This document shows positions 8,976 through 38,409 of a stretch of DNA of 64,000 nt, one piece after another. The position numbers and the translations under genes were made by a program. The notes under the pieces are model-generated. The model ran no database searches. It was not told where the DNA came from and saw nothing but the letters and a program-made list of their open reading frames with translations. Each line of letters begins with the position of its first letter. The first letter of the stretch is position 1. Origin of the DNA: a virus (taxonomy: Duplodnaviria; Caudoviricetes); IMG/VR virus record IMGVR_UViG_3300027563_000002, positions 46,041 to 110,040 of that record, one strand, 5' to 3'.

Positions 8976-9047
8976 TTCAAGCCTTGCGGTAGCGAATCGC
9001 TCAGCCTGCCCAGCAGCCGGGCCACACGGTCCTAAGGTAGGTGTGAT
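8970..9047 (-). ncRNA. Candidate structured RNA/DNA element
   Basis: GC-rich stretch with adjacent stems CACAC/GTGTG, GCCCGG/CTGGGC and AGCG/CGCT; family not recognised. Confidence 0.3.
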
Positions 9048-9967
9048 CGGTTGAGTGATTCATTCAGTCCTTGAATCACACGTTGTATTTGTTTTAATCG
9101 TTGATAATGTTGTTCAGATTCGCGCCCGCGATAGTAAGCACTGCCTTCGGCGTAGTTGTAATCGGGATCACGGCGTTGCTCAGCATCAGCCACCAGTTCA
9201 TCAATGTTGGGGTATCGGGCAGTCAAATCACGACGATGTTTTTCGGCATCATGTGCGGGAGGTGTGTATGGTTGGCGTCTTGCATCTGCACGTGCCAGGC
9301 CCCGCTCTCTTTTGGCAATGGTCTGATCGGCTGCTGCAACTGCGGCAGGATCGTTACGGTCAAAGAATCGGTTTGTCTGAGCCATGGCCCTGCTCATGGT
9401 GGCTTTTTTACCATAGTCGCCTAGGCTGACTTCCGCCACACCTCGTTTTCGTGAGTTAACATAGGCTTTGTATTCTTTTTGTGCCGCTTGATGCACTGCA
9501 TGATTTGTAGTGAAATCTTTATACTTGTCGCCCTGCTTCAATACCCATGTGGCAAAGTCAAACCACTTGACCCCGGTATCATTATTTGCCTCCGCCACAC
9601 CTTGCTCCGGCAATACGCCTTTAGGACCTGCCATTGGTTTTGTTTGAATTTGCTTCTTAATTAAATCGTGCTTGTCTTGGTCAGGTCCAGCAGATGCCAT
9701 TATATCATCAAAGTCTCGGGTGGCAACACGCAACCTCTCCATGTCTTTGTTAGTCCATTGACGATCTTTCTTGCTGCCTTCCGCCATGCCTCGATCGGTA
9801 CTTTCGCCACCGCCATCTCCACCGCCTTCACCAGATTCACCACTGCCATAGTAACCATAACCTGGAAAGAAGTATCCACCCATTGCCCTTGAAGATTTTT
9901 TCTTTCTATTTTTCTTTGCCTCTTCAACACCTGGTTTTTTATTATTGAATAAATCGTTGATGATCAT
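9032..9967 (-). CDS. Putative head-internal modular protein
   Basis: Short modules separated by GVEE, GMAE, GVAE, GVAE and LNE. Confidence 0.65.
   Translation of the reverse strand: MIINDLFNNKKPGVEEAKKNRKKKSSRAMGGYFFPGYGYYGSGESGEGGGDGGGESTDRGMAEGSKKDRQWTNKDMERLRVATRDFDDIMASAGPDQDKHDLIKKQIQTKPMAGPKGVLPEQGVAEANNDTGVKWFDFATWVLKQGDKYKDFTTNHAVHQAAQKEYKAYVNSRKRGVAEVSLGDYGKKATMSRAMAQTNRFFDRNDPAAVAAADQTIAKRERGLARADARRQPYTPPAHDAEKHRRDLTARYPNIDELVADAEQRRDPDYNYAEGSAYYRGRESEQHYQRLKQIQRVIQGLNESLNRSHLP
9431..9442 (-). repeat. GVAE junction repeat GGTGTGGCGGAA
   Basis: Exact GGTGTGGCGGA copies at 9431, 9590, 13869 and 38008; variants at 9779, 13152, 13563, 14052, 17252, 25791, 25977, 36977, 37187, 37393. 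Confidence 0.85.
9590..9601 (-). repeat. GVAE junction repeat GGTGTGGCGGAG
   Basis: Seen directly in sequence. Confidence 0.85.
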
Positions 9968-9969
9968 GA

Positions 9970-10902
9970 TTATCGTTCTTCTATGTAATCTGTGTCGGAG
10001 TTGCGTTGCTGTGCTTGGCGACGAGCTTGAAACAACTTCACGGCTATACCAGCATCATCCAGGCTGCGAAAGCGACTGGGCAATGTCTTGCCACCACGAC
10101 GCAGTTCATATCCTTGATCATCATCGCCACAACATTCCAAGGCCACACCGTCGGCCATTTCAAATGTGGCCACAGGCGCCTGTGGTGCGCCAAGTTTGTT
10201 GGCCACATCCAGTTCAGCAGCATGTGCCACTTCGGTATCGCCAGGATCTGACGGACCTTGCATGGCAGCAGGATCTGTATCTATTTCTTCATTCAAATCC
10301 AATTCACTGTGTGGGAAAGCCATGTAACTGTTGCCATTCTCATCACCAGCACGTATTACAAATACCCCAGCATCATCATCACCGGACTCGTCTTGACCAA
10401 TTTCCCAGCCCATTGCTGCCAAGGTGTCCTGTGCCTTGGCCATTTGTTGTTCTGTGCCGTTCCACCATTGCGCAGCTAGTTGACGCAGAATTTCTTCCTC
10501 ATCAGGCTCACGGTCGTCTCCACCAGGCAACGCAAATTCATCAAGATCTTCTTCGGCCTTGCCCTTTTGTACAGCGTCAACTGCTTTGTCTTTCAAGTCA
10601 CGGTCAACATGCACCTTCTTTTCCAACCGGTCCAGATATGTTGTGAGGTCTCGTTTGACCTTGCTGATCATGTCTTCTTCAATCTCGGCCATGGCTTCTT
10701 CCAGTGCAGTACGCTTGGGCTCCACGGAGTCGCCGACCATGTAGCCATCCATGGGATGAGCAGGGTCTGTTTTTGAGCCCAACGCACGAATGTTACGAGG
10801 CTTGAACAGTGCAGGCAACTGTGGTACCTTTTGTTGTGCTGGACTCAATCGGCCTTCCACTGTGGCCAGTCGGTCTAAGATTGATCTGATGTCGTTGCTC
10901 AT
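9970..10902 (-). CDS. Acidic putative head-internal/core protein
   Basis: Start MSNDIRSILDRLATVE; LEE/IEE/LDE/LNE sites; ends DYIEER. Confidence 0.6.
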   Translation of the reverse strand: MSNDIRSILDRLATVEGRLSPAQQKVPQLPALFKPRNIRALGSKTDPAHPMDGYMVGDSVEPKRTALEEAMAEIEEDMISKVKRDLTTYLDRLEKKVHVDRDLKDKAVDAVQKGKAEEDLDEFALPGGDDREPDEEEILRQLAAQWWNGTEQQMAKAQDTLAAMGWEIGQDESGDDDAGVFVIRAGDENGNSYMAFPHSELDLNEEIDTDPAAMQGPSDPGDTEVAHAAELDVANKLGAPQAPVATFEMADGVALECCGDDDQGYELRRGGKTLPSRFRSLDDAGIAVKLFQARRQAQQRNSDTDYIEER

Positions 10903-11339
10903 GCTCGTTGGTCTTTCAGATAACTGCGCAGTTGCCATTGATACTTGCCGTGTTGACCCAGGCGTCCTGCCACGAAGTCAGCAATGCCCTGTTGGTTTTC
11001 TTGTTCAGCAGCAGCAAAGCATTGGTTCAGTAGGTCGATCATTTGTTGGGTGTTGGCCAGCAGTTCTTCGATCATGAGTCGGGCACGTGGGATACGGCTT
11101 TGTTCATTAATCACAGTGAGTTCGGCAAAACGTTCCATGCTGCCGGGAGCGTATTCGTCAAGATATCTAATGTATTCTGCTGTTTGATCTAGTGCACCAT
11201 AGGCGTCTTCGTAGATTTCCTGGAAAAAATTATGCAGTTCGCTGAAGTCAGGACCTTCCACATTCCAATGAAATTGGTGTGCTTTGAGGTAGTAGACAAA
11301 ATTAGTTGCCAATAGAGTTTTTAAATTGTCCGCGAGCAT
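10899..11339 (-). CDS. dps: Dps ferritin-like DNA protection protein
   Basis: KAHQFHWNVEGPDFSELH and D..AE..R ferroxidase signature. Confidence 0.93.
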   Translation of the reverse strand: MLADNLKTLLATNFVYYLKAHQFHWNVEGPDFSELHNFFQEIYEDAYGALDQTAEYIRYLDEYAPGSMERFAELTVINEQSRIPRARLMIEELLANTQQMIDLLNQCFAAAEQENQQGIADFVAGRLGQHGKYQWQLRSYLKDQRA

Positions 11340-11520
11340 GTTTGTTCCTTTTATATTCCTTGGGCGTGTTAGGCGTAGGATCTAATGCAGTCGTATATTT
11401 ACCTGTCAGCAAGGAACCGCCAGATCTTGATTGCATGCCTAATGCTGACTCAACAGGGGCAATACCGCCTGCTGTTGTGGCGCCCACTGACGCCGATTCC
11501 ACAATTTCATGGGCTCTCAT
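11302..11520 (-). CDS. Small putative virion protein
   Basis: Starts MRAHEIVE (capsid-targeting-like). Confidence 0.55.
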   Translation of the reverse strand: MRAHEIVESASVGATTAGGIAPVESALGMQSRSGGSLLTGKYTTALDPTPNTPKEYKRNKHARGQFKNSIGN

Positions 11521-11803
11521 GCCATATCTCCAGTATGTTGTCTTTCCAAATACGTGCTGGACCATGGACCACACGTATATTTCGAACTTTGAGTCCAGCC
11601 CCACTGCTGGTGATCAATTGGTACTCAATGGGGTACTGCCCAGGAGCGGCTCGCACAACAAATTCTTCTTCTAAGTAAGTATTTTGCCAAATCCATGTTC
11701 TTTCAGTAAACAGTTCTTCATTGACAAACAGTCGATACACAGGAGGTTCTTTGCTCCATTTGCAGTAAACATCACAAAGAACTGTTATATCATAGGTGTG
11801 CAT
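11507..11803 (-). CDS. Hypothetical protein
   Basis: ORF tiled in operon. Confidence 0.6.
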   Translation of the reverse strand: MHTYDITVLCDVYCKWSKEPPVYRLFVNEELFTERTWIWQNTYLEEEFVVRAAPGQYPIEYQLITSSGAGLKVRNIRVVHGPARIWKDNILEIWHESP

Positions 11804-11811
11804 ATCAAATC

Positions 11812-12975
11812 TCAGTGGAACATCAGGAATTGATTGGCCACGTCCAGTCGGCTGGCACCTAAATCACCGTGTCCTGCAGGGAATACCACAACGTTCCATT
11901 TGGGAGCAGGACCTTCGGGTATGCGATTCATCTCGTCATATGTGATCACAGTGTTGGGATCAATATTGTACTTGGCACCCAAGTCTTGACGGAACTGCTG
12001 CCAGGCTCCTGCGCTCTTTACTTGTGTGCGGCCTTTTTCATCTTTCACATACTTGCCCTTGGCATCGGTCACAAACAAGTCACGGAACATGTCCTTGGGC
12101 AAGGTCACAGCGTCTTTCACATGCCGGCCAGCATCACGCTGTAGTTGAACTGTTTTGACTTCACGGCTCTTGGCACCTGGTGAGAACTGTTTGACCACGT
12201 TGTTGGGTGTGTCAGGGTCTGTTACTATTTCGCCCATCTTGGTGTAGAAATAGAATTTTACATCAGGATTGTTCCGGGCCACATCCATCATCAAGTTGTA
12301 GTATTCTTTTGAAAAGAAGTCACCAGCGTCATGTATGCGCACCAACAGCTTGATGCCATTCTTGCTGGCCAATGCAGCGGCTTTTTTGACTTCACCGTCA
12401 AACTTTGCCATGTAGTCTGAAGGATGATTAACCAAGAAGTTCAAGGCCTGTGCCGCGCTCATTGAGCTGGCTGGGAACATCACATAGCCGCCTTTTCTGG
12501 CATAGCAGTAGGTTTGGCATTCGCCAGCACCTGGGCAGGTGATCACTTCCACAAACTCACCGGTTTCTTCATCTACCACAATGCCACTCAAGGCCGGCAG
12601 GGTCAAGTCATATGTGATGGCGCCTTCTTGTTTGCTCTTGGCCATTTTGGCATTGGTGCCCAGAATCTGTCTTGGCGGCTGCATGATCTGACTTTTCAGA
12701 TCCGCCAGATCCCACTCTGTGCCACCGTCGTCTCGAGTGATGGCCTTGATATTGCTGCCGTGTATGATGGGCTTGAACTTGTCAGCCTTGGTCTTGGTGC
12801 CAGTCTTGATACGAGTGGCATAGTCTTGCATGTCTTGTTTTGACATCGCACGTTGAGGCGCATCCAGTTTGAGTGCTTCGTCTGTGGCGCCTTGTTCCAC
12901 ATTCAGTACTTTGATGGGAAATCCACCCAGGGTTGGGCCGCGTTCGGCAGCTTCTACAATTTGTTGTATTCTCAT
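11812..12975 (-). CDS. Phage GP88-like (radical-SAM-related) protein with capsid-targeting-like N-terminus
   Basis: CPGAGECQTYCYA, RIHDAGDF, FYFYTK; starts MRIQQIVE. Confidence 0.65.
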   Translation of the reverse strand: MRIQQIVEAAERGPTLGGFPIKVLNVEQGATDEALKLDAPQRAMSKQDMQDYATRIKTGTKTKADKFKPIIHGSNIKAITRDDGGTEWDLADLKSQIMQPPRQILGTNAKMAKSKQEGAITYDLTLPALSGIVVDEETGEFVEVITCPGAGECQTYCYARKGGYVMFPASSMSAAQALNFLVNHPSDYMAKFDGEVKKAAALASKNGIKLLVRIHDAGDFFSKEYYNLMMDVARNNPDVKFYFYTKMGEIVTDPDTPNNVVKQFSPGAKSREVKTVQLQRDAGRHVKDAVTLPKDMFRDLFVTDAKGKYVKDEKGRTQVKSAGAWQQFRQDLGAKYNIDPNTVITYDEMNRIPEGPAPKWNVVVFPAGHGDLGASRLDVANQFLMFH

Positions 12976-15938
12976 TTTCTTTTGGCCTTTGCTCTGCCGG
13001 CTTTCATGTTGGCCAGCCAGTGGGCCATGCGTTGCTTTTCACCTGATGAATTCTTTGCTGTTTTACGCAGACTGCTGACTGACGCTTTGGTATCGACTCC
13101 CGAGCGTTTGGCCAGGCCTTTGCGTCCAGGATTCTTACCGTCAGCAAAGTTTTCCGCTACACCTTGCTGTATTGTGCTTAGTCTAGCAAGTTCTTGTTCG
13201 CCTTCAGGAGTCAAAAACCAATAGCCGTCAGCATCTACAATCCATCCAGCATCATATAAACTGTCATACACTCTGCTTTGAGCACGACTTAGGCTTTGAC
13301 TATCTTCTTGAAATCCCAATCCATGATCATTTGCAACTTCAATAGCTTTGAGTAGCAAGGCCTTGCCATAACCTTTACCGCGCACATCATCAGTCACTTC
13401 TGCCTGATTGTGTACGTCATCAGTTTCGGGATCTCTAAAAAATGAAAAATGCCCAACATTTTTTCCATCAGCGATTGCAGTGACAGTAAAACTACTTTGA
13501 TAATTGTCAGTAGATGCTGTTTGGAATTGTACTGTCGAAGCGTCAGCTTCATGAACCTGGTCTTCCGCCACGTCTTGCTTGTTGGACCAAAGCAATTGGC
13601 CTTCTTCTTGTGCTATGAGGTGTATGTTGTATCCTGGATGGGTGGGTTGTATGTCATAGTTGTCAAAGTGAGAAGATAATTTTTGTAATATTCTCACCAC
13701 GCCAAGATACTGATCACCCACAAGATCATCAGGTACCACTACCAAGATATCAGTGTCACTGTTTTTACGATGTTTGCCTGTGGCACGACTGCCATGGAAC
13801 CAAATTTCTTGTGCTATGGGCATGACTTTGAGTATGGCATCAACCACTGGCTGACCTGGTTGTTTGCCCTCCGCCACACCTTGTTTCAAATAGCCCCATT
13901 CGTCCTTGCTTGTACGATCACGCCTGGCAATGTCTCTGCCTTTTAGTTGATCTTCTCTGCGCTTGTCGCCCGCGGCACGTAGTTTAGCAACCTTGCCATC
14001 ATCTTTATTAGCAAGACGACCTGCGGTATTGACCATGGCATTGCTTTCGCCTGCCGCCACACTTTCTTTGACCACAGCAGGCACTGTTTCGTCACCCAGC
14101 AGGTTCAACAAAAATGTTCTGTGATGTCCGTCTTGCAAGTGATATGAGCCATCTGGCAGGGCAGACACTGTGATGGGATTCTTTTGTACAAATTGTCGTA
14201 GGCGTTGTTGGGCAGCAGGATCGGCCTTTAGCGCATCCACCAGTTCGCGCATGCTCATGTCTGGAGACACCTGCATGCCAGCAGCATGAGTCAACACATC
14301 TGCTGCTTGTTCTATATTGACGCCTTGTGTGCCAATGGCACCATTGGCCCGGCGCACATTGGCAATGGGAAAATTCTCAATGTCTTCACGCAAGTTCACA
14401 GTCTTCATCAACAGACCAGGCTCGCCATTGCGACCTGTGTTCAAGGCCAGCTTGTTGGCTTCCCGGCCAGTCTGTCCAGGTTTGATATCCACACTCAAGG
14501 CCATGGCATACTGTGGCATGGCAGCTTCACGCTTGTTCTTGGGAATATATCCTGATGCACCTTCGCCCAAGGCCGGCAATTCAAAATGTTCAGGATGACT
14601 GTTGGCCCAGTCACGCATGATGATGCCTGCTCGTGCATTGGCATCATTTTCCCAACGTGATCCAGTTTCGCCCGCGTCGTCAGGCAAGCCGTTGTATTGT
14701 TGATTTTGACTGCAATGCACCAGTTCATGTGCCACAGTGCGCAACACATCCAGGATATGACGATTGGGCATGCTGACATTGAGTGTGTGGCTGTCAGGAT
14801 CGTAACGACCAAAACTGTGATTGCGTGTGCTCCATTCAGGATCGTTGTGCAAATGAATTTTGGGCATGGGATCAATGCCCAGTTCTGTGGCAGTGTGTTG
14901 AATAAACTCCTGTACCAGATTGGTTTCAGGAGAGGAATCTTCTAAAAATTGTTTGGTGCTGGCAGCCACGCCATCTTCTGAACTGTAGGGCTGACCTTGA
15001 TGCCCTTCTTCAACTCCGCCAGTCCAGGGCTTGACAGGAGTTCGAGCTATCTTTTGAATTTTTTCTTGGCGTTCAGCTTCGCGCTGTTTTTTTACTTTTT
15101 CGTATTCATAGGGACTGCGAAATACTTCTTGTTTCGATGTTTTGGCATCAGCATCAACGGCTGCTCGCATGTCTGCCCAACTGGCTTCGTCAACTTCTGT
15201 GCCATAGCCATAACGAAATGGCCTTGCAGGAGTTTCACGCAGGCTGAGTTCTCGATCTTGTTGTGCGGTCATGGCATCTTTGAGCAACTTGATGCAACCA
15301 CTGTTGCGCAACAACTTGAAAGAGATATTTTCACAACCAAATTCGCCTTGTTGTTCAAGACCGCTTTGGCGCATGGTCTTGATCTTGTTCCACAGTGTGC
15401 TGATGGTTTTTAAATTGTGTGACTTGACGGCGGCATGTATTCTGGCATCCAGGTCTGCTGTTTTGTCACGCACACAGGTGTCATCTATCTGAGCACGTTT
15501 GCGCTGTGGTACTTGACGCCACTCTGAATCCTGGATTGAGTAAATGCCTTGGCTGTGATGTGGCTGATCTGCAGACTGCACATACAGTTCTACATCAGCG
15601 CCACCAATCCGTATGTTGTGCTCGTTGTTGTACTGATACTTCTTGGCTGTGAACAATTCCTGGTACACAGGATTGTCGGGCATTTCTACCACAAGATGCA
15701 GATCAATGTCTGAATTTTTTGTATAGGAGTAGGCTGCGTTTGAGCCTGATATGGTGATGTCTTGGATGTTGAGATTGTCAACACCCAAGAATTCTTGAAA
15801 GTCTGCTGCAATGGTCAGTAGCTTTTCACGCACTTCGGGCAGCAAGTGCTCGTCTCGCCCCCAAATTCTGGGGTTGAGACGGCGGTGAAATTTTACTGCG
15901 TCGCCAAGATTGTAGGAGTCCAACTCATGAATGTTCAT
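12972..15938 (-). CDS. Polyvalent multi-module protein (NTase, HExxH metalloprotease, ParB-like, MNT NTase, GNAT)
   Basis: GSNAAYSYTKNSDIDL; AHELVH; DGHHR; HGSRATGKHRKNSDTDIL; RGKGYGKALL; modules joined by xVAE/GVEE. Confidence 0.8.
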   Translation of the reverse strand: MNIHELDSYNLGDAVKFHRRLNPRIWGRDEHLLPEVREKLLTIAADFQEFLGVDNLNIQDITISGSNAAYSYTKNSDIDLHLVVEMPDNPVYQELFTAKKYQYNNEHNIRIGGADVELYVQSADQPHHSQGIYSIQDSEWRQVPQRKRAQIDDTCVRDKTADLDARIHAAVKSHNLKTISTLWNKIKTMRQSGLEQQGEFGCENISFKLLRNSGCIKLLKDAMTAQQDRELSLRETPARPFRYGYGTEVDEASWADMRAAVDADAKTSKQEVFRSPYEYEKVKKQREAERQEKIQKIARTPVKPWTGGVEEGHQGQPYSSEDGVAASTKQFLEDSSPETNLVQEFIQHTATELGIDPMPKIHLHNDPEWSTRNHSFGRYDPDSHTLNVSMPNRHILDVLRTVAHELVHCSQNQQYNGLPDDAGETGSRWENDANARAGIIMRDWANSHPEHFELPALGEGASGYIPKNKREAAMPQYAMALSVDIKPGQTGREANKLALNTGRNGEPGLLMKTVNLREDIENFPIANVRRANGAIGTQGVNIEQAADVLTHAAGMQVSPDMSMRELVDALKADPAAQQRLRQFVQKNPITVSALPDGSYHLQDGHHRTFLLNLLGDETVPAVVKESVAAGESNAMVNTAGRLANKDDGKVAKLRAAGDKRREDQLKGRDIARRDRTSKDEWGYLKQGVAEGKQPGQPVVDAILKVMPIAQEIWFHGSRATGKHRKNSDTDILVVVPDDLVGDQYLGVVRILQKLSSHFDNYDIQPTHPGYNIHLIAQEEGQLLWSNKQDVAEDQVHEADASTVQFQTASTDNYQSSFTVTAIADGKNVGHFSFFRDPETDDVHNQAEVTDDVRGKGYGKALLLKAIEVANDHGLGFQEDSQSLSRAQSRVYDSLYDAGWIVDADGYWFLTPEGEQELARLSTIQQGVAENFADGKNPGRKGLAKRSGVDTKASVSSLRKTAKNSSGEKQRMAHWLANMKAGRAKAKRK
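13869..13880 (-). repeat. GVAE junction repeat GGTGTGGCGGAG
   Basis: Seen directly; precedes the MNT module. Confidence 0.85.
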
Positions 15939-15944
15939 AAGTTG

Positions 15945-15950
15945 TATTTA
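15945..15950 (-). promoter_or_regulatory. Late promoter box TAAATA
   Basis: Hexamer recurs upstream of many genes; resembles T4 late TATAAATA; 6 nt from ATG. Confidence 0.7.
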
Positions 15951-15953
15951 CCG

Positions 15954-16880
15954 TTACACTGCGGCAGCGGCTTTCTTGCTCTTTTTGCTTGATGCCATTA
16001 CCACAGGTTCGGCTGTGGGCACTGGATCAACAGCCAGTTCATGTGCTGTGGCAGGCAGCTCAACAGCCGGCGCCGCAACAATATTGGGCTCAAACATCAC
16101 TTTGAGATCCTTGTACAGTTGCTCGTGTGTGTTGTAGTCAAATGTGTATGAGCCCACATGACGCAACAAAATGCGCTTGTCCACATACACTTTGCCGCCC
16201 AGATCACGCCAGTTTTCACAGAATGTCCAGTCTTCCGAGTAGTAGCGATTTTCGCGCACAGCAGTATCAAAATAGGTTTTCATGTAGGGATTCAGTTCTG
16301 CAGGCAGACCAATGTCGTTGTTGAAAGGTCTAGTGGCAGGATGCTCATTCAATTTCTCAAACACATCACGCTTGATCAACAAGAAGCCTGTGCCTGTTTT
16401 TGTGACTTCAATCAGCTTGCCATCCGGTTCGTCGGGCTGTCCAGGAATGCCGTTCACACACCATTTGACTGGCAGACTCTTCATGGGATACAATCCACCG
16501 ATCACGTCTTTTTGTGCATCCAGCATGACCAACAGGTGCCAGGGTTCCCAGCCAATGTCAGCGTCAATAAACATCAAGTGTGTGCTTTCTTTGTTGTGCA
16601 AGAACTTGGCAGTAAGAGTGTTTCTGGCACGTGATATCAAGCTCTCATTGGTCATGGTTTCCACTGTCCAGTCAATGTTCAGTTGACGGCACATGTTGGC
16701 CCATTTGATATAGCTCATGAAACACTGTTCGGTCAACTGTCCACCATAACAAGGCATACAGATATGCACTCGTGTGGTACGCAAATAGTCAATATTTACT
16801 TGTATGTTGTTCTGATTTGTTTGTACAGGATCAGTTGGGGGTACAGTAGTAGGCACTGCATCAGCTTGGGTGTCAGACAT
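15954..16880 (-). CDS. GT-A fold glycosyltransferase-like protein
   Basis: MPCYGG, SRARN, MFIDAD (DxD), GTGFLLI, SEDWTFC. Confidence 0.75.
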   Translation of the reverse strand: MSDTQADAVPTTVPPTDPVQTNQNNIQVNIDYLRTTRVHICMPCYGGQLTEQCFMSYIKWANMCRQLNIDWTVETMTNESLISRARNTLTAKFLHNKESTHLMFIDADIGWEPWHLLVMLDAQKDVIGGLYPMKSLPVKWCVNGIPGQPDEPDGKLIEVTKTGTGFLLIKRDVFEKLNEHPATRPFNNDIGLPAELNPYMKTYFDTAVRENRYYSEDWTFCENWRDLGGKVYVDKRILLRHVGSYTFDYNTHEQLYKDLKVMFEPNIVAAPAVELPATAHELAVDPVPTAEPVVMASSKKSKKAAAAV

Positions 16881-16904
16881 GGGTTCTCCGTTAAAATGTG
16901 CTAG

Positions 16905-16910
16905 TATTTA
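16905..16910 (-). promoter_or_regulatory. Late promoter box TAAATA
   Basis: Intergenic, upstream of GGAG RBS. Confidence 0.65.
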
Positions 16911-16936
16911 AAGATTATAACAGAGGGTGTTATTTT

Positions 16937-17848
16937 TTACGACCGACGTTCTTCCACATAGTCTTCATAAGTGGCAGCCCAGCCTTGGTTTTCGTTTGTT
17001 TTGGGTTGACTACGAGCAATACTTATAGTGTATCCTTGCAGTCCTTTTTTGGATAATATGTTGTCCACAAATTCTACGGCTTCTTGAGAAGTGCTAAACT
17101 TGTTTCCAAGATCAAGGTGTTTAGTATCATTACCAATTTTTACAATAGCTATAAAATTGGGTCTGGCAATTTCCTGTGCGCCTAAAGCGCCAGCGGCAGC
17201 CATGCCCGCGGCAGCAGTTGTGCCTTGAAGGAATCCTCTGCGGCTGATGTCTTCTGCCACGCCGCCAATGTTCTGATCAAATATACGCACAATATCCTGT
17301 GCGCCTGCTGGATCTTTTTGCGTTGAAGGATACAGGCTCATTACCAGAGCCATACGCCGTTTGGGAGTCAGCTGAGGCCAAGCTGCACGAATTTGAGAGG
17401 CTGATGTAAATGCGCCAGGTCCAAATTCTATTGTGGGCAAATACGCCATGTAGGCATGTTTGCCAAATGGTTCCAGTCGCTTGGCACCCAACAACGGCTG
17501 CAAATAACTAGCAGATCCGTCTTTTTTTACACCGCCAGCATGTGGAGGGTTAGCAGCATCTTTTTCTGACCGTACAAAGATAATTGTGTCACGATCGGGG
17601 TTGTATTGACTGGTAATTTCCATGGCCTGAAAAGGTGACTTGACCTGCACAAAGTGTCCAGGTTCTACACCTGCAGCATAGGCAATCTTTTGTTTTTCTG
17701 AGATATCAAAAGGCCTGTCACTTTTGTCATTGGTAGCAGCCACATACACTTCGGCATCAGGAAAAGCTCGTTGTGCCGATTGATACAGGGCCAAGTGTCC
17801 TGGATGAAAAGGGTGAAAACCCCCGGGCATGATTACTACAGTTGTCAT
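16937..17848 (-). CDS. Cytidyltransferase-like (HxGH) protein with C-terminal Tat-signal module
   Basis: PGGFHPFHPGH; GGVAE followed by DISRRGFL. Confidence 0.75.
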   Translation of the reverse strand: MTTVVIMPGGFHPFHPGHLALYQSAQRAFPDAEVYVAATNDKSDRPFDISEKQKIAYAAGVEPGHFVQVKSPFQAMEITSQYNPDRDTIIFVRSEKDAANPPHAGGVKKDGSASYLQPLLGAKRLEPFGKHAYMAYLPTIEFGPGAFTSASQIRAAWPQLTPKRRMALVMSLYPSTQKDPAGAQDIVRIFDQNIGGVAEDISRRGFLQGTTAAAGMAAAGALGAQEIARPNFIAIVKIGNDTKHLDLGNKFSTSQEAVEFVDNILSKKGLQGYTISIARSQPKTNENQGWAATYEDYVEERRS

Positions 17849-17854: not shown

Positions 17855-17860
17855 TATTTA
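17855..17860 (-). promoter_or_regulatory. Late promoter box TAAATA
   Basis: 6 nt upstream of ATG 17848. Confidence 0.7.
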
Positions 17861-18839: not shown

Positions 18840-19538
18840 CTATTTAGTCGTTTCAATGGCCATGGTCTTTCTTACAATACCCGGCATCACCAGACTCAGC
18901 ATGGTGCCTTCGTTGGGATGATCATGATCCACAAAATAATGGGCTCGAGAGTAGTTGCGGTTTAGAACATAACCAGACGACATGCCAATGGTCAACCATG
19001 CCATCAATGAGCCACAAGGCTGCAGGGTATCTTTTCTTGAGTTCAAAAAATTGGCCAGCATGAGCCGTTGATCATAGGTGTATTTGCGTTCTCTAAAATA
19101 AGTTCTGTACGCATACTTTGATTCCTGCAACTGCACCACACCCACTGGGAGAGAAATTACTGCTTGTCGTACCAGTCGAACCCTGACTCCATCGTTGTCT
19201 AAGTGGATCAATCGATCAGCCAGACCGCGGTGATTGATGTATATACTCACAGTGTTGAAACTGACCACAGTTTTGAACGGTACAGTTTCACTCAACAATA
19301 CCTCACGAGTTTCGCGCAGGGCAGTTTCTTTGGTAATGCTCCAGGCCCGATCAGTCCATCGATCATTCTCAGCCCAGTATTTGGCATTACGGATGGCTGC
19401 TTCAAATCTACCAGGCTCTAAGTTCCGCAGGCAAGCGGCCTCAGAAATGTTGATGGTTATGCACCACTCGTACTGATTGTAGTACAAACTGCTGCGATGA
19501 TCCAGCTCAACTTTATACAACAATGATTCCGTCGGCAT
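18840..19538 (-). CDS. Hypothetical protein
   Basis: 232 aa ORF. Confidence 0.6.
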   Translation of the reverse strand: MPTESLLYKVELDHRSSLYYNQYEWCITINISEAACLRNLEPGRFEAAIRNAKYWAENDRWTDRAWSITKETALRETREVLLSETVPFKTVVSFNTVSIYINHRGLADRLIHLDNDGVRVRLVRQAVISLPVGVVQLQESKYAYRTYFRERKYTYDQRLMLANFLNSRKDTLQPCGSLMAWLTIGMSSGYVLNRNYSRAHYFVDHDHPNEGTMLSLVMPGIVRKTMAIETTK

Positions 19539-21768
19539 TTACAGTGCTCACTTTGTCAAGTTCGATATCAAATTCCACAGCATCCGCCGCCATCACAGCA
19601 GTGATCACACAGTTCTCCAAGCGATCAAACAGCATCCGCTTGCTGAGTGGCACACGTATCAGTTCGTCAATCTTGCGGCTTAAAGGACGTGCGCCCATTT
19701 TTGAGTCGTAGCCTTTGTCTGCCAAGTGGTCAATCACCGGCTCGGTCAATACCAGTCTGATGTTTTTTGTTGTCATGCTGGCCTTGAGCTCGTCCACAAA
19801 CTTCAACACAATCTTCTTGATGGCCAAGGTGTCCAGTTTGTCAAACTTGCAGATACGATCAATACGATTGCGCAGTTCTGGACGGAAGAACTCTTTCATG
19901 GCACGATCTTCTTCACCGGTCTTTTCCATGTTGCCAAAACCAATGTTGTTGGCATCGTTGGCCTGTGCGCCCAGGTTAGACGTCATGATGATGATACAGT
20001 TTTTGACATCTACTCGTTTGCCGTTGGCTGACGTGATATGCCCTTCATCCAGCATCTGCAACAGGATGTTGGTCACATCGCCATGCGCTTTTTCGATCTC
20101 GTCAAACAAGATGATAGCATAGGGATTTTTGCTGATGTCAGAGATCAACTTGCCGCCACCTATGTTGCCATCTTCAAAGCCCACATATCCAGGAGGTGCG
20201 CCAATCAGACTCGACACCGTGTGCTTTTCCTGATACTCACTCATGTCATAGCGCAACAGTTTCATTTCCAAGTGTTCGCTCAGCAGTTTGGCCAGTTCAG
20301 TTTTGCCTGTTCCTGTGGGGCCCAAGAACAAGAAACTGCTGATGGGACGTCGAGCATTGCCAATGCCAGCAAAGTTGATGTACACACGTTCCAGCACCGC
20401 ATCTACCGCTGAATCTTGTCCGTACAGTTTCTGCTTGATATTGCTTTCAAGATCCACAATTTTTGCACTGCGTTCATTTTGCAATCGATCCACAGGCACA
20501 CCGGCCACACGTGATACCTGTGCTTGAATCATTTCTTTTGTGACAGTGACGGTGCCAGCATCTTTCACACGCTCACGTGCGCATGACGCATCCAACAGGT
20601 CAATGGCTTTGTCGGGATTCTTTCTATCGTGAATGTAGCGATTGGCCAGTTCCACTGAAGCCATAATAGCATCAGTGTCGATCATGACATCATGGAATTT
20701 TTCCAGTCTTGGACTCAGGCCAATGAGAATTTTTTCTGTAGTTTCAGTATCAGGCTCATCAATTGAAATACGGTAGAAACGGCGCATCAGCGCACGGTCT
20801 TTCTCAAATGATTCGTAGTACTCTTCCCATGTGGTTGATGCAATCACTTTCAATTGTCCTTTGGTGATTGCAGGTTTCAGCATGTTGGCAAAGTCCAATG
20901 AACTTTGTGACCCTGCACCAGCACCTTTCATGGTGTGTGCTTCGTCAATGAACAAGATACAGTTCTTTTTGGTTTCTAGGGCAGCAATCACGGCCTTGAA
21001 CTTTTCTTCAAACTCACCGCGATACTTTGATCCTGCCAGCAGTGATCCAACTTCAAGACCCCATACTTCGTGGTCTTGTATAAATTTGGGCACACGTCCA
21101 GCCACAATTTCCTGTGCCAAGCCATCCACAATGCAGGTCTTGCCCACACCAGGGTCGCCTACCATCAGCACATTGGCCTTGAAGCGCCGCGCCATCACGG
21201 TGATCATTTCGTGCAGTTCTGTCTGGCGCCCAATTAGTGGTTCCAGCTGATCTGCCTGGGCCTGGGCTGTCAAGTTGGTGCAGTATTCATTGAGTATGTC
21301 ATTGGCCTGATTAGTGTTCATTTTGACTGAGTCAGCCGCTATGTAGTTCTTGCTGTAGAACTCAGAAAACTCAGTTTTCTTCACACCATATTTGAGCAAA
21401 AAATAGTGTGCATGACTGTTGGTCTCGGCCATGATGCTTAGGTACAAATCCAACGTGGTCAAGGTTCTGCGCCCGGTGAACATGACCTGCACATTGGCAC
21501 GATTGAACAGGCGTTCTAGAGTTTGTGTTTTGCGTGGCTGCACTTCGTCACCGGCCTGGACCAGGTTCTTCAAACTGTCAAGATATGCATCAACTTCTTG
21601 GTCCAATTGTTCAACTTCCGCACCAAAACGGTCCAGGGTCTTTTTAAATGCTGCATGCCGGATCAGACTCAACAGCAGGTGTTCTGTGATCACATACTCG
21701 TGATGTTTGTCTCGTGCAATTTTGACTGCTTGATCTACAATATATTCGATTTCGGGATTGTTTTGCAT
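19513..21768 (-). CDS. clpA: Clp protease ATP-binding subunit ClpA
   Basis: Clp-N (EHLLL), Walker A GDPGVGKT and GPTGTGKT, FIDEAH, FDEIEKAH, GARPL; no ClpB-type middle domain. Confidence 0.93.
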   Translation of the reverse strand: MQNNPEIEYIVDQAVKIARDKHHEYVITEHLLLSLIRHAAFKKTLDRFGAEVEQLDQEVDAYLDSLKNLVQAGDEVQPRKTQTLERLFNRANVQVMFTGRRTLTTLDLYLSIMAETNSHAHYFLLKYGVKKTEFSEFYSKNYIAADSVKMNTNQANDILNEYCTNLTAQAQADQLEPLIGRQTELHEMITVMARRFKANVLMVGDPGVGKTCIVDGLAQEIVAGRVPKFIQDHEVWGLEVGSLLAGSKYRGEFEEKFKAVIAALETKKNCILFIDEAHTMKGAGAGSQSSLDFANMLKPAITKGQLKVIASTTWEEYYESFEKDRALMRRFYRISIDEPDTETTEKILIGLSPRLEKFHDVMIDTDAIMASVELANRYIHDRKNPDKAIDLLDASCARERVKDAGTVTVTKEMIQAQVSRVAGVPVDRLQNERSAKIVDLESNIKQKLYGQDSAVDAVLERVYINFAGIGNARRPISSFLFLGPTGTGKTELAKLLSEHLEMKLLRYDMSEYQEKHTVSSLIGAPPGYVGFEDGNIGGGKLISDISKNPYAIILFDEIEKAHGDVTNILLQMLDEGHITSANGKRVDVKNCIIIMTSNLGAQANDANNIGFGNMEKTGEEDRAMKEFFRPELRNRIDRICKFDKLDTLAIKKIVLKFVDELKASMTTKNIRLVLTEPVIDHLADKGYDSKMGARPLSRKIDELIRVPLSKRMLFDRLENCVITAVMAADAVEFDIELDKVSTVNADGIIVV

Positions 21769-26698: not shown

Positions 26699-26775
26699 GC
26701 TGTTATTTAGTTGCTGTATCAAACATCCGCTGCTGGAAATGCCTGCTGCGGCCGGGCAAAACTATAAGTACAGCT

Positions 26776-27918
26776 ATGAATGTATTGATTTTGACTCCTG
26801 ATCGCACCGGAAGTTCTTTGTTGTTGAATTTGATCACTATCTATATGCAATTTCATGAATATGATCATCCAGTGCTGTCATATTATGATTTAGGCTATGG
26901 ATTGGTCAAATACTATAGTGATGTCTTCAACAATGAAGTTTTAGACAGTGCAAGGCAGTTTGATGATTGTGATCAAACGCTGCCAGAAATACGTGATCTT
27001 TTGAAATCAGTTTATCATTATAAAACCAGCAGACTTAGTTTTGCCACTATTCAACGACGCCAAGACAGTGTGGCTGATCAAATGAAATTTTATCAGTATC
27101 TGAATGAAAATTTTTTTATTATCAGCGCAAGGCGGGAAAATTTATTTGAACACGCATTAAGTTCGTGCATAAAAATTCACACCAAACTCGGTAACGCATC
27201 TGATCCGCATCAAAAATTCAACCTATTTGCAGATGTTTATAAAAACAAAATACTGATCAGTAAAGAAAATATCCACAAACATCTTGACCAGTACCAACAA
27301 TATTTAAAATGGTGCAATGATCATTTTGATATTGGCAGTTATTTTTATTACGATAAAAATATTTCAAACATTGAACAGTACATACTGCAACTCCCAATTT
27401 TTGACAACCAGCGTCAAAAAATTTCTTGGAAAAATAAGTTTGATATTGAATTCAATGAATGGAACAAGGTCAATTATCTGATCAGTGATCTGAGTGGCTT
27501 GAGTCAGCAATTGTTATTGACTAACACTGATACACCACCGTTGACCGATCATGGTGAAAATATACCTAAGTGGCAGTTGTCAGTGACTGAAAATCACAAA
27601 AAGATTGTGTCAAGTCTAAATCAAACAGATGTTGAATTTTTAAAAAAACACGCTAGAAAATTTGTGCAGGCCAACAATAACCTAGATGAATTGATGGACT
27701 ACAAGATACTAGAAAGACCCATGCAGGTCAAACTGCAGACCATGATCGAAAAGAAGCTGAGTATCAAAAACTTTGATCAATGTGTAGAATGGTATAATGA
27801 ATGGGTCACTGCCAACAATTTTGGCCAAATCTATTCAGAGGACACTGCTTATCAATCCGAAATCAACGAACTCAAAAGTTGGCATGCGGCCAATATTTTA
27901 GAATATCATCAGCAATGA
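26776..27918 (+). CDS. Sulfotransferase-like protein (paralog 1)
   Basis: LTPDRTGSSLL and RRENLFEHALS resemble Stf0-type PAPS-binding motifs. Confidence 0.55.
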   Translation: MNVLILTPDRTGSSLLLNLITIYMQFHEYDHPVLSYYDLGYGLVKYYSDVFNNEVLDSARQFDDCDQTLPEIRDLLKSVYHYKTSRLSFATIQRRQDSVADQMKFYQYLNENFFIISARRENLFEHALSSCIKIHTKLGNASDPHQKFNLFADVYKNKILISKENIHKHLDQYQQYLKWCNDHFDIGSYFYYDKNISNIEQYILQLPIFDNQRQKISWKNKFDIEFNEWNKVNYLISDLSGLSQQLLLTNTDTPPLTDHGENIPKWQLSVTENHKKIVSSLNQTDVEFLKKHARKFVQANNNLDELMDYKILERPMQVKLQTMIEKKLSIKNFDQCVEWYNEWVTANNFGQIYSEDTAYQSEINELKSWHAANILEYHQQ

Positions 27919-27928: not shown

Positions 27929-29173
27929 ATGAACGTTCTAATTCTCACGCCAGATGCAGTAGGCAGCACTTTATTGCAACGCATGTTGACCATTTACATG
28001 CAATTTCATAATTTTGGCCGTCCTGTTATTAACCTACACGAACTGACCAATGGGCTTGCTAGATACTACAGCCCCGAATTCAATCAAGAATTGGTCAGTA
28101 AACATGCCTTAAAAAAATGGGGATATCATCAGTCACTGGAACAAGTGGTTGAGGTGTTGAGCAGTGTTGATCATTACAAAACATCAAGACTTGCACACTA
28201 CCATATTGTTCAACGCGGGGACTCCCAGGCTCAACAAATTCCATTTTACAATTATCTCAATGAGAATTTTTTCATAATTGCCTGCCGGCGTGAGAACGTG
28301 TTCGAGCATGCTGTTAGCATGACTCTCAATACTGTGACAAAGAAACTCAATGTGTACAATGTGTATGAAAAAGTAGACACTTTTTATGACATGTACAAAT
28401 CCGGGGTGGTATTAGATGCGGCAGTATTTGAGCGTAAGTTGGACGCATACAAGAAATATGTGATCTGGAGCGAACAGCATTTTGATATTGGTGCATATTT
28501 CAATTACGAAAAAGATGTGCCAAGACTTGAACAATACATCCTAAACCTGCCGGTATTTGCTGCACAGAACAATCTTGTGACCTGGGATCAAAATTTTGGG
28601 ATTAGTTTCAATGACTGGAATCAAGTCCACTATATCCGCAGTGACCCGGCTGCACTGACGTGCATGCCCAGTCAGACCAGTGAAAAATTGTTGTTGACCA
28701 TTGCAGACCCAGTGACCGAGTACCAACAACACAGTCGATTCGAAATGCCCGCTGTTAATTCAGCAGCGGACCTGGCGGCCTTGCCCCCGGATGTGGCCGA
28801 AACCTGGGCTAGTGACACAGTCAGTCGCATAGGACTAGTGCCTTTTCTTAACAGAGACTATCAACTAAGACTAAAGAAATATCAAGCTGGCTACGAAAAG
28901 GCGCAGGCCACAATAGAGCAAATGAAGCAATTGGGCATAATATTCACTGGTCCACCCATTAAAAAACAAACCCTAGGTGACAAACACCGAATAATTAAAA
29001 ATTTCGACGAATTGATCCAAGTCTATAATCAATGGCATGAGATCAATCCCGAATTTGGCCAGGCCATGAGCAGTGAAATCATGCAGAGTCAGATATCGCA
29101 AGAATATGACTTTTGGCATTCAATTACTAATTCAGCAGATTCTGCACCTGCTTTGCCACCCAGTCAGCAGTGA
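27929..29173 (+). CDS. Sulfotransferase-like protein (paralog 2)
   Basis: LTPDAVGSTLL and RRENVFEHAVS; clearly homologous to the upstream gene. Confidence 0.55.
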   Translation: MNVLILTPDAVGSTLLQRMLTIYMQFHNFGRPVINLHELTNGLARYYSPEFNQELVSKHALKKWGYHQSLEQVVEVLSSVDHYKTSRLAHYHIVQRGDSQAQQIPFYNYLNENFFIIACRRENVFEHAVSMTLNTVTKKLNVYNVYEKVDTFYDMYKSGVVLDAAVFERKLDAYKKYVIWSEQHFDIGAYFNYEKDVPRLEQYILNLPVFAAQNNLVTWDQNFGISFNDWNQVHYIRSDPAALTCMPSQTSEKLLLTIADPVTEYQQHSRFEMPAVNSAADLAALPPDVAETWASDTVSRIGLVPFLNRDYQLRLKKYQAGYEKAQATIEQMKQLGIIFTGPPIKKQTLGDKHRIIKNFDELIQVYNQWHEINPEFGQAMSSEIMQSQISQEYDFWHSITNSADSAPALPPSQQ

Positions 29174-35160: not shown

Positions 35161-35254
35161 GTGGTCTCCTTGGATATATACTTAACTAAAAACAAAGGAA
35201 GCTGCAAATTTTTGCTTTCTTTGTAAAATTATTTATCTAAAATGGAATTTTTTA

Positions 35255-36621: not shown

Positions 36622-36652
36622 GCAGATATGTATCTGCTGCGGCCTGCGGAGA

Positions 36653-37213
36653 TTATTTTCCTGCTACTGCCAGGCCGGCGCCTTTGTTGAAACTGGGGCT
36701 CCAGGAATTGGCTTGGCGTAGGCCTTTCCTCTTGCTCCACTCATATCCGGCTCGGTGTCCCGAACAGTCTTTGGTGCATTCGGATCCTAAGAAGCTGAGT
36801 TCTCTCAGCTGATCGCGTGTCCACTTGTCAGGAATCACGCCGTGTTTGGCCACGAACTTGTCATGCAATTGCCGGCCGGTAATGCCGTGGTCACGAGCAA
36901 TGGTCTGCATCATGTGATCAATTGCACTGTAGCTTTTGGGATTGTCAAGATCTTTTTCCAAATCTTCCACTGCACCTTCCGCCACTGTGTTTGTTTTGAC
37001 TTTTTTGCCTTGTACCGCAGTGGTCCGGTTGGGTTCATCTGCGCTGTCTGGTCTGGCACTGGGCATGAACTGATTTATGGTTTTTTGAGTGAGTGGTCCC
37101 AGCACACCATCAACGTCTAAATTTGCGTTGAATCGGTCATTCAACATTTTCTGTATGCGGCGAATCGATTGTTTTTTATCGTCACCTTCCGCAACAAACT
37201 CTTGTGCTCTCAT
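36653..37213 (-). CDS. Putative head-internal modular protein with peptidoglycan-binding-like module
   Basis: MRAQEFVAE; IQKML..LDVDGVLGPLT; TVAE and LRE junctions. Confidence 0.7.
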   Translation of the reverse strand: MRAQEFVAEGDDKKQSIRRIQKMLNDRFNANLDVDGVLGPLTQKTINQFMPSARPDSADEPNRTTAVQGKKVKTNTVAEGAVEDLEKDLDNPKSYSAIDHMMQTIARDHGITGRQLHDKFVAKHGVIPDKWTRDQLRELSFLGSECTKDCSGHRAGYEWSKRKGLRQANSWSPSFNKGAGLAVAGK

Positions 37214-38409
37214 TTTCTTGGTGGTTGAACTGCTGTGGGCACGTTTCGGTACACACGTTTGGCAGGATCGTACACAGTTTTCATGGGACCCAGTCCGGCC
37301 AGCTTTTTGACTCTAGCAACCATGGCATCGTATTCATCATCGTAGTCAACTTCTTCGGGGTCACGGTAGTCCGCGCCCTTTTGTTGCTCACCTTCTGCCA
37401 TGCCTGGTTGTTGTGCACCACGAATGGCCTGCAACAACGCCCTAGCAACCACACGGTCTTTTTCTTTTTCTTCTTCAGGCAACTGAGCATAGTTTTGTTT
37501 CATCAACTGTGCTCGCTGTTGAAGTTTGGCTTCTAGTTTGCCGGCTGCGGCCAACTTTGCTGTGTCGTCAAACTGTTTGGGATCTTGTACAAATGCCTGT
37601 GCAGTGGTATTCCATCCTTTGTGGATGGCATCACTTATGGCTTCAATGTCTGTCACACCTTGATCGATCATCTGTTTGGCATAGGCAGCTGACTTCAAGT
37701 TGGCCTGCCAGCCAAATGTGTTGCCTGGTGTGCTACGACCGTAGCCGTATGCTTGATCCAATGCTGTATCACTTATGGTGGCCAACTGTTGTACACTGAG
37801 TGGCTGACCGGCATTTTCTCCCACACTGCGGCGGAAAAGTTTGGCATCATTAGCATCGTGTTTGCCGCGTTCTAGACCTTTTTCCCACTCGTCGTATTTG
37901 CGAGCTTGTTTTGTGGCACTGTAAGGATTGTCCTTGATAGTTTTGCGTTCTTGGTATGCGCGGCGGCCAAGTTCGTAAGCCACACCTACTCCAGCCAGTT
38001 CATACTCTTCCGCCACACCTTGTCCCAACACTTGACGAACTAATAGTTCAGGAGCAAAGTCCATATCACCGGCTAGTTCTCTTGCAGCCATCAACACTGC
38101 TTGTTTAGTTGGCTGTAATCTTTTTTCTTCTACATCTCTACGAAGTTTAAAAATAAGAGATTGTGCATCATACCCTAAATCTCTAACACCCTCCTCTACA
38201 CCTTCTGACTTGTTGCCATAGTTGCCAGCACCTTTTTTGCGGCACTGTACCAAGCGTCCGGACGCATAGGCTGAAGGCCACACCTTGGCCGACGCTTTGA
38301 CCTTGTAGTAACAAGCGTCTTTCTTTTCAGCCAGGATCAAGTCTGAGAAACTGATACCGCCGCATTCGGGGCATGGTTGCGGGGCTTCAAAAAGTTCGTC
38401 TATAATCAT
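37210..38409 (-). CDS. Putative head-internal modular polyprotein
   Basis: MIIDELFE; GVEE, GVAE, SVGE, GMAE junctions; RMF-like and RyR-like modules. Confidence 0.7.
   Translation of the reverse strand: MIIDELFEAPQPCPECGGISFSDLILAEKKDACYYKVKASAKVWPSAYASGRLVQCRKKGAGNYGNKSEGVEEGVRDLGYDAQSLIFKLRRDVEEKRLQPTKQAVLMAARELAGDMDFAPELLVRQVLGQGVAEEYELAGVGVAYELGRRAYQERKTIKDNPYSATKQARKYDEWEKGLERGKHDANDAKLFRRSVGENAGQPLSVQQLATISDTALDQAYGYGRSTPGNTFGWQANLKSAAYAKQMIDQGVTDIEAISDAIHKGWNTTAQAFVQDPKQFDDTAKLAAAGKLEAKLQQRAQLMKQNYAQLPEEEKEKDRVVARALLQAIRGAQQPGMAEGEQQKGADYRDPEEVDYDDEYDAMVARVKKLAGLGPMKTVYDPAKRVYRNVPTAVQPPRK
38008..38019 (-). repeat. GVAE junction repeat GGTGTGGCGGAA
   Basis: Seen directly in sequence. 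Confidence 0.85.

Follow-up and report, generated by a model that had tools for sequence, protein, structure and literature searches.

The window is a stretch of 64,000 nucleotides within a 110-kb viral fragment of 32% estimated completeness (CheckV), and six of its genes, all read from the minus strand, encode proteins assembled from modules that meet at hydrophobic-x-Glu sites. The longest of these genes, at 12972-15938, specifies a polyvalent-type protein of 988 aa in which Pfam and PHROG matches (NTP_transf_2/Polbeta, GNAT, ParB-like and the NTase phrog_36119) place several unrelated effector-type domains on one polypeptide, in the order NTase, HExxH zincin-like, ParB-like, a 61-codon insert, MNT-type NTase, GNAT and a conserved basic tail. 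The HExxH module returned weak Pfam matches only (Tox-MPTase3, E 0.046, below the cut-off), and the other five modular genes are without a zincin-like MPTase domain. A GVAE joint at 13152-13163 precedes the basic tail module (12972-13151), and the MNT-type NTase and GNAT modules are separated at 13563-13574 by DVAE, a Gly to Asp variant that retains the GCG codon for Ala; at the equivalent position relatives carry GVAE or GMAE and different downstream modules. Codon-level comparison delimited a 183-bp segment (13869-14063) lying between two direct copies of the joint core, at 14052-14063 and 13869-13880, and a GVEE site at 15006-15017 corresponds to GVAE or GLEE in relatives. The N-terminal core of this protein is kept in relatives while all parts behind it vary, and a megablast search of the gene against cultured phages gave no match. 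AlphaFold, run on the single sequence of residues 600-988, gave a model with a mean pLDDT of 45, which was set aside.

The remaining modular genes are shorter. The gene for a 311-aa protein (9032-9967) has four joints, GVEE at 9920-9931, GMAE at 9779-9790, and GVAE with the exact core at 9590-9601 and 9431-9442, and the N-terminus of its product, MIINDLF, resembles a second leader type found in relatives. In the 303-aa gene (16937-17848) a cytidylyltransferase-like domain is followed by a module resembling a twin-arginine signal, and the GVAE joint at 17252-17263 uses the Ala codon GCA. The 242-aa gene (25527-26255) combines a leader, MKITEIVTE (26229-26255), a DIAE site (25977-25988) and a C-terminal DUF6321 module, and its modules recur in relatives as leader-plus-module genes. 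The 186-aa gene (36653-37213) begins with a T4-type capsid-targeting leader, MRAQEFVAE (37187-37213), and has a TVAE site at 36977-36988; its neighbor at 37210-38409 encodes 399 aa, with the leader MIIDELFE and joints at 38191-38202 (GVEE), 38008-38019 (GVAE, exact core) and 37393-37404 (GMAE), and partial matches to it in other phages start or stop at residues 73, 134 and 339. Both belong to an operon whose first gene (38406-38753) encodes a single Cys-rich CWxGY module of 115 aa (phrog_727). The sole exact T4-late-type box in the window, TATAAATA, lies on the minus strand at 38761-38768, 8 nt before the start at 38753, and shorter TAAATA boxes on the same strand (15945-15950, 17855-17860 and 26704-26709) stand ahead of the other modular operons; boxes of this kind precede modular operons and structural genes. 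The modular build and the placing of module borders at hydrophobic-x-Glu sites, both proposed by an earlier sequence-only reading of this DNA, are borne out, and every position it listed is right, including the variant junctions at 9779, 13152, 13563, 14052, 25977, 36977 and 37187, each of which was found and reads in frame.

An exact 11-mer of the joint occurs four times on the minus strand (9432-9442, 9591-9601, 13870-13880 and 38009-38019), as against 0.02 copies expected from shuffles, and sequences flanking the motif in the contig are unrelated right to its edge. At the peptide level, the whole 110-kb contig has seven occurrences of GVAE (0.68 expected) and four of QGVAE (0.03 expected). 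GCG accounts for 7.8% of Ala codons in the contig and for 15 of the 152 that directly precede Glu, whereas 11 of the 13 junctions taken from the sequence-only reading, some of them chosen by eye, have it (P ~4e-11). That choice lends something to the view that the pattern means nothing more than coincidence, or a small number of linkers duplicated from a recent common ancestor. However, when all G-[V/M]-A-E sites in the contig are taken, a criterion independent of the eye, GCG is found at six of nine (P 1.5e-5), the corresponding P in relatives is about 1e-100, and the flanks are unrelated in 176 junction classes, all of which makes that view exceedingly improbable. For the GVAE joint, then, the earlier claim that junction DNA is conserved beyond what the protein needs was right by a wide margin. 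For two kinds of site, the place in the DNA repeat family that this reading had given them is not supported: GVEE sites have varied codons, the peptide rule being common there with no conservation at the DNA level, and the leader site at 37187 is of a type in which GCG appears in only one of ten leaders. Nor do the modules stand out as AT-richer, their GC of 0.39-0.42 comparing with a mean of 0.46 and an SD of 0.04-0.05 for windows of the same size.

The comparison set comprised 156 related viral loci with a GC of 34-49%, and four near-complete relatives of 343-364 kb. Across these loci GCG is used at 133 of 183 G-[V/M]-A-E sites against a background of 8%, and 94 of the 183 sites share an identical 12-mer. 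The bias at silent sites extends over about 18-21 nt around the core of 12 bases, and includes Gln (CAA, 103:1), Gly (GGT, 142 of 182), Val (GTG, 126 of 153) and the following Gly (GGC, 72 of 89). Variants of the joint are single transitions away from the consensus. The motif is in frame in 105 of its 112 occurrences, and a scan of the whole collection placed a 15-mer in frame, with differing flanks, at 177 of 187 distinct places among the matches listed. The GCG and GCA forms of the 15-mer each had at least 120 matches in that collection, which were used for frame and clustering, and environmental viral contigs often carry the joint. The exceptions (7/112, and 10/187 among the matches listed) are out of frame, antisense or intergenic. 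A special tRNA was rejected as the source of the codon bias, with tRNA-Ala(UGC) the only tRNA for Ala in the phage and other Ala-Glu sites at background, and a Chi-like or genome-wide DNA signal was likewise rejected, with only two to seven clustered copies per ~350-kb genome, nearly all in frame.

It is conceivable that the 15-21-base string has a DNA or RNA function of its own, for example as the target of a nuclease or nickase, as a site for binding or as a pause in translation between modules, and is kept by purifying selection, with shuffling as a side effect. Bias is seen at five or six silent positions together, in phages whose GC ranges from 34 to 49%, and the bias is missing from other candidate protease sites: GCG is at background level at [I/L]-A-E sites and is never used at the scaffold and capsid sites beside the protease gene. 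Since leader and scaffold sites do without GCG, the codon is not needed for cutting. A string with its own function is nevertheless unlikely, given that occurrences outside the reading frame, on the opposite strand or in intergenic DNA are so rare, that its copies are so few and clustered, that it has no secondary structure, and that its variants are those that decay from the consensus would give. Silent-site divergence between orthologs is also about the same within the motif as in its flanks, a weak test in which one set (the MNT-NTase module) has seven sequences, too shallow a sample, and the other includes non-joint sites.

Comparison of relatives reveals module gain, loss and swapping with breakpoints inside the joint, as had been anticipated. 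The upstream flanks of the 176 junction classes fall into 126 families and the downstream flanks into 127, and among 201 junctions only four pairs have both flanks homologous versus 203 (92 + 111) with one homologous flank, or 201 when a slightly different comparison window is used. The residue before the core tracks the upstream module (82% the same) and the residue after it tracks the downstream module (86% the same), while similarity of the core itself is equal across all types of pair. In two related loci (L008 and L009) the 183-bp segment is absent and one copy of the core is left, the one clean repeat-bounded indel that was found, and internal breakpoints of homology are enriched 3.5-6-fold at the joint. 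The conserved basic tail module stands behind ~50 unrelated upstream sequences and always starts directly after x-x-Glu, with mostly V, M, I or L at P3 and P2 free. Many module switches also fall at other hydrophobic-x-Glu sites without DNA conservation, so the consensus DNA is not required for exchange.

The sequence-only reading had proposed an integron-like array, in which a dedicated site-specific recombinase would insert and excise in-frame cassettes at the repeat. In its favor are the direct repeats bounding the modules, the repeat-bounded indel and the very high turnover of partners. Integron cassettes are likewise exchangeable units at a repeated site, but integrons depend on the IntI integrase and on attC sites that fold, and what they mobilize are complete genes lacking promoters; the present system has none of these traits. 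No recombinase had been seen in the window, and our searches agree: PF00589, the tyrosine recombinase profile, had no match in the contig or the four near-complete relatives, although all control genomes matched, and no serine recombinase was found in the contig. The joint is not an inverted repeat, has no hairpin, and together with its local contexts folds no better than shuffles. With exchange seen also at sites that lack the DNA motif, the integron mechanism is very unlikely; of the earlier interpretation, it is the modularity, the DNA joint and the swapping that stand, and the integron mechanism, the AT-richness and the inclusion of GVEE and leader sites that find no support.

The leader of the 186-aa protein is nearly the same as the capsid-targeting sequence of T4 IPIII and has the QEF(I/V)AE core common to IPIII and IPII in the T4 record (MRAQEFVAE in the window, MKTYQEFIAE in T4; the roles of leader positions are treated in PMC9026906), leader-like N-termini are present on the products of 25527-26255 and 37210-38409, and 181 ORFs in related loci start with M-R-A-x-E-F-h-x-E, where h is hydrophobic. 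Portal_T4, Peptidase_S77 (the gp21 family) and Gp23 occur in near-complete relatives as mutual neighbors, Peptidase_S77 scoring above its curated cut-off in three of the four and having no match in the other; the 110-kb fragment, at 32% completeness, has no protease gene. These head genes and T4-like leaders make a T4 gp21-type protease a credible cutter of the modular proteins, and to that extent favor the earlier suggestion of a protease-type site, with cleavage itself a prediction from sequence.

Alternatively, GVAE may be a flexible linker only, in polyvalent proteins that stay intact or that undergo processing by a zincin-like peptidase of their own instead of the head protease. The 988-aa protein has polyvalent domain types and an HExxH module, processing of polyvalent proteins by an embedded metallopeptidase has been proposed (PMC5512222), and two of the six proteins, the 988-aa and 303-aa products of 12972-15938 and 16937-17848, have no N-terminal leader. 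Yet four of the six are without a peptidase domain, Glu is invariant and P3 hydrophobic at dozens of borders that are otherwise unrelated, in line with the gp21 rule, and T4-like leaders are carried by the same module families. Moreover, modules resembling twin-arginine signals start 1-3 residues after a hydrophobic-x-Glu site in 16 of 16 cases, and such modules need a free N-terminus, so a role as linker alone is improbable. There is a wider likeness to polyvalent proteins, large proteins in which NTase, ParB-like, GNAT and zincin-like domains (the last a candidate only in the 988-aa protein) occur in variable order, with predicted delivery alongside the DNA and processing into units (PMC5512222; Iyer et al. 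2017). Here, by contrast, a peptidase is missing from the majority of the modular genes, borders obey the rule of the head protease and one DNA joint is shared; a term search of PMC5512222 found neither linkers nor shuffling.

We therefore favor, with a probability of roughly 0.6, a reading in which the six genes encode capsid-targeted cargo polyproteins of a giant T4-related phage that are cut at hydrophobic-x-Glu sites and exchange modules at the GVAE core. Behind it stand the motif statistics, the combinatorial partners, the single repeat-bounded indel, the T4-type head module of relatives and the T4-like leaders; packaging, cleavage and the mechanism of recombination are what we infer from them. 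The cargo proteins would be produced late in infection, at least some would be taken into the prohead by means of the short N-terminal leader, and a gp21-family head protease would cut after Glu, so that every module would become a small protein or enzyme in its own right and accompany the DNA. The commonest site between modules, (Lys)-Gln-Gly-Val-Ala-Glu-(Gly), would at the same time be a unit of DNA, with 12 core bases and silent bias over ~18-21, inside which exchange takes place between genes and between phages. The likely route is general recombination of the phage, a RecA/UvsX-family gene being present in all four near-complete relatives, or replication slippage on short identity, rather than a dedicated integrase, on the assumption that recombination on 12-21 bases is efficient. 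New joints would start as consensus DNA and later decay by transitions, and it is presumably because of this copying and decay that a rare Ala codon marks the joints. A stronger version, that the core is a selected dual-use element with recombination joint and cut site in the same twelve bases, letting a whole population of giant T4-related phages build capsid-delivered effector polyproteins in many combinations, is tentative and somewhat short of even odds; the system may then do for proteins what gene cassettes do for genes, either integrase-free or with the help of an enzyme that recognizes the core.

If the favored reading holds, large phages diversify their injected proteins through exchange, at a single standard joint, of prefabricated modules that separate themselves, and three themes so far handled separately, T4 capsid targeting with gp21 processing, polyvalent effectors and motif-mediated shuffling, become linked. 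It would also predict the rule by which proteins of an uncultured clade are cut, provide a list of cargo modules that work autonomously (nucleotidyltransferases, acetyltransferase, ParB-like and export-signal modules), and offer a natural template for loading a T4-type head with several proteins encoded by one gene.

The T4 internal proteins IPI, IPII, IPIII and Alt offer the nearest comparison, with a short N-terminal leader that ends in hydrophobic-x-Glu, as in the window (PMC9026906, PMC5694885, PMC3012670), diverse and fast-changing cargo behind a conserved leader, and a gp21-family protease, T4-type portal and capsid protein that the relatives studied here share. In T4, however, each gene encodes one cargo, whereas here many units share one reading frame with predicted internal cut sites, the internal joint, unlike the leader sites, shows conservation of its DNA, and packaging and cutting are predictions. 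Short conserved motifs also act as exchange points in T4-type phages (PMC2839356, PMC4122927, PMC3157838): PeSL cassettes (PMC2839356, PMC4122927) and the conserved glycine-rich motifs in gp38 adhesins (PMC3157838) flank variable segments that are exchanged without a dedicated integrase, and endpoints in a conserved short DNA motif, the mark of such shuffling, are seen here in the 183-bp indel, the segregation of flanking residues and the enrichment of breakpoints. A PeSL is an intergenic element, made up of promoter and terminator, by which entire genes are moved; the motif described here is coding and in frame, and the PeSL anatomy of intergenic early promoter and stem-loop is absent from it. 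In gp38 the motifs belong to the structure of a single protein family, unlike a 12-21-base in-frame joint, and likely protease site, between unrelated modules.

The GVAE joint has no description that we could find in the literature searched, and nothing useful was found there on virion proteomics of cyanophage homologues. Given modules are found both singly behind a leader and within polyproteins, and several of the same modules appear, in other orders, in multi-module proteins from the g16-g17 interval of T4-like cyanomyoviruses such as S-SRM01, ACG-2014f and S-SKS1 (phrog_727, 3477 and 10346), where they are joined not by GVAE but by a different recurring linker, F-S-[N/D]-W-R-[D/E]-[D/E].

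The 12-bp repeat that encodes G-V-A-E between unrelated protein modules (the joint) is a real and strong motif of this contig. Every variant site named in the sequence-only reading was found, in frame, and the exact 11-mer occurs in 4 copies, all on the minus strand, where 0.02 are expected. Among the contig's proteins, GVAE is present 7 times (0.68 expected) and the pentapeptide QGVAE 4 times (0.03 expected), and the flanks of the motif are unrelated in sequence. The proposed enrichment of GCG is borne out, as this codon accounts for 7.8% of the contig's Ala codons versus 11 of the 13 junctions originally chosen (P 4e-11) and 6 of 9 sites collected by the unbiased rule G-[V/M]-A-E (P 1.5e-5). 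The accompanying suggestion that several modules look AT-richer than their flanks did not hold, the named modules deviating by at most about 1.3 SD from the local mean.

The window makes up the final 64 kb of an IMG/VR viral contig that is 110 kb long and has a CheckV completeness of 32%, so the full genome is probably ~340 kb; near-complete relatives measure 343-364 kb, two of them with terminal repeats, and the capsid protein of the relatives is ~65% identical to those of the PA5oct-like, Vibrio 2.275.O and Erwinia SNUABM jumbo phages. In the part of the contig that precedes the window, ARAGORN located 27 tRNA genes in minus-strand arrays (contig 3967-17279). Searches with the 988-aa (12972-15938, minus strand) and 399-aa (37210-38409, minus strand) proteins gathered 156 loci on other viral contigs, with a GC content of 34-49%. 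These loci have 183 distinct G-[V/M]-A-E sites, of which 133 use GCG against a background of 8% and 94 are the identical 12-mer. By site class, GCG use is 73% at G-[V/M]-A-E, 10% at [I/L]-A-E and 4% at other x-A-E sites; Ser/Asp variants, one mutation off, use it at 31-43%, and codons at G-[V/M]-E-E sites are mixed. Codon choice at the joint is also skewed for Gln (CAA 103:1, background 71:29), Gly (GGT 142/182, background 39%), Val (GTG 126/153, background 26%) and the Gly that follows (GGC 72/89, background 32%), with Glu barely enriched (GAA 156/182, background 80%, P 0.03). The commonest variants are single transitions away from the consensus. In the whole viral collection, the scan for frame bias found the longer 15-mer in frame at 177 of 187 distinct places among the matches listed, with differing flanks; at least 37 loci have two or more copies, and occurrences of the synonymous GCA version among the matches listed are all singletons.

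Comparative evidence supports the part of the sequence-only interpretation in which modules would be gained, lost and shuffled at the joint. The 183 sites form 176 classes, with flanks that belong to 126 families on the upstream side and 127 on the downstream side, and across 201 junctions both flanks are kept in 4 pairs, the upstream flank only in 92, and the downstream flank only in 111. The joint is enriched 3.5-6-fold for internal BLAST end points, and partial matches to the 399-aa protein begin or end at residues 73, 134, and 339. A 183-bp segment lies between direct copies of the core at 14052-14063 and 13869-13880 (minus strand), and two relatives (L008 and L009) are without the segment and keep one copy. 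Relatives of the 988-aa protein have in common an NTase and HExxH core, behind which the modules are very different, and the same basic tail ends most of them. The residue preceding the 12-base core segregates with the upstream module (82% agreement against a baseline of 36%) and the residue following it with the downstream module (86% agreement against a baseline of 27%), and similarity of the core is about equal across all pair types. Because each flanking residue tracks its own module and the core is similar throughout, the exchange point is placed inside the core.

The joint also looks like a site for a gp21-family (Peptidase_S77) head protease, for which the predicted cut rule is hydrophobic-x-Glu (h-x-E). 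Backing for the protease-type site first proposed comes from x-x-Glu borders, T4-like leaders and the presence of Peptidase_S77 in relatives, where it scores above the curated cut-off in three of four near-complete genomes and adjoins Portal_T4 and Gp23. About 50 unrelated sequences precede the conserved tail module, always ending so that it follows immediately after x-x-Glu, with P3 mostly V/M/I/L and P2 free; in some cases a leader precedes it directly. Orthologous sites carry GVEE, GVAE or GLEE. In the related loci, 181 ORFs start with M-R-A-x-E-F-h-x-E; the window gene 36653-37213 (minus strand) starts MRAQEFVAE, and T4 IPIII and IPII start MKTYQEFIAE (T4 record). Residues 4 and 7 of the T4 leader serve targeting, and residues 8 and 10 serve cutting (PMC9026906). 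The modules that stand singly after a leader recur inside the window's polyproteins. Furthermore, all 16 twin-arginine-signal-like modules (window 17170-17251, minus strand, and 15 related loci), identified by a weak Pfam TAT_signal match below the cut-off, start 1-3 residues past a predicted cut site, a placement that can be understood only if the cut leaves the N-terminus free; cleavage there would make the module an N-terminal export signal.

The 59-aa basic tail module (window 12972-13151, minus strand) keeps 85-98% identity in dozens of viral contigs, whereas all that lies upstream of it varies. It also forms a small gene right behind a leader, and it may serve as a DNA-binding internal protein or as a second packaging tag. 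Between the portal and an acidic scaffold-like gene, three related loci encode a 72-77-aa protein (L167 7388-7606, L168 11590-11820, L169 11154-11369) with N-termini (MILNELY, MNIFELF, and MLLQEFF) that resemble the second leader type of 9032-9967 and 37210-38409.

One question is why the DNA of the joint is conserved. The need for a cut site is not the cause, because h-A-E leader sites use GCG in just 1 of 10 and the codon is absent from the scaffold and capsid sites next to the protease. A tRNA effect was rejected, as the phage's only tRNA-Ala is tRNA-Ala(UGC), and so was a folded element, as the joint does not fold. Nor is the string a DNA signal in its own right: each genome has few copies, and almost all of them are in frame. 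With these set aside, copy-and-decay is favoured on thin data: exchange inside the core would give birth to new joints with consensus DNA, which would then drift. The transition variants are consistent with copy-and-decay, as are the silent sites of the motif, which differ about as much as those of the flanks in a few orthologous comparisons.

The integron-like mechanism once proposed finds no backing, since no tyrosine recombinase was found in the contig or the four near-complete relatives and no serine recombinase in the contig, in agreement with the remark that none is visible in the window. All four near-complete relatives have a RecA/UvsX-family gene, and exchange of segments at conserved short motifs is known from T4-type phages (PMC2839356, PMC4122927, PMC3157838). 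Modules also switch at h-x-E sites without conserved DNA. The consensus may aid exchange and is not essential to it.

Such joints are unmentioned in two jumbo-phage reviews, and a full-text search on the pentapeptide gave alpha-synuclein papers alone. In its discussion of processing, the polyvalent-protein paper proposes an embedded metallopeptidase (PMC5512222); a term search of that paper returned no mention of linkers or shuffling. Cyanomyoviruses S-SRM01, ACG-2014f, and S-SKS1 (L005, L006, and L007) encode homologous multi-module proteins between the small and large terminase genes, but these have their own recurring linker, F-S-[N/D]-W-R-[D/E]-[D/E], which differs from the window's joint.

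TAAATA boxes lie 11-13 nt ahead of the first genes of modular operons and of structural genes (15945-15950, 17855-17860, 26704-26709, and 38761-38768, all minus strand), one among them being the full box TATAAATA, and 20 of the contig's 59 TAAATA copies are no more than 40 nt from a gene start (P 7e-18). At 11-13 nt from the start codons, the boxes would mean very short mRNA leaders. A 751-aa Clp-type AAA+ protein (19513-21768, minus strand; phrog_4871, E 2e-236) adjoins a gene (21845-22612, minus strand) whose N-terminus is, by eye, DnaJ J-domain-like, and the two would be a phage-encoded chaperone pair amid the modular-gene region. Short Gly/Asn/Ile/Thr repeats abound in the 2130-aa protein of 42473-48865 (minus strand), which dominates the peptide k-mer statistics of the contig and probably belongs to the virion, as a fibre or in another role. 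Inside the minus-strand block, two plus-strand tandem genes (26776-27918 and 27929-29173) have near-identical N-termini (MNVLILTPD) and are probably paralogues.
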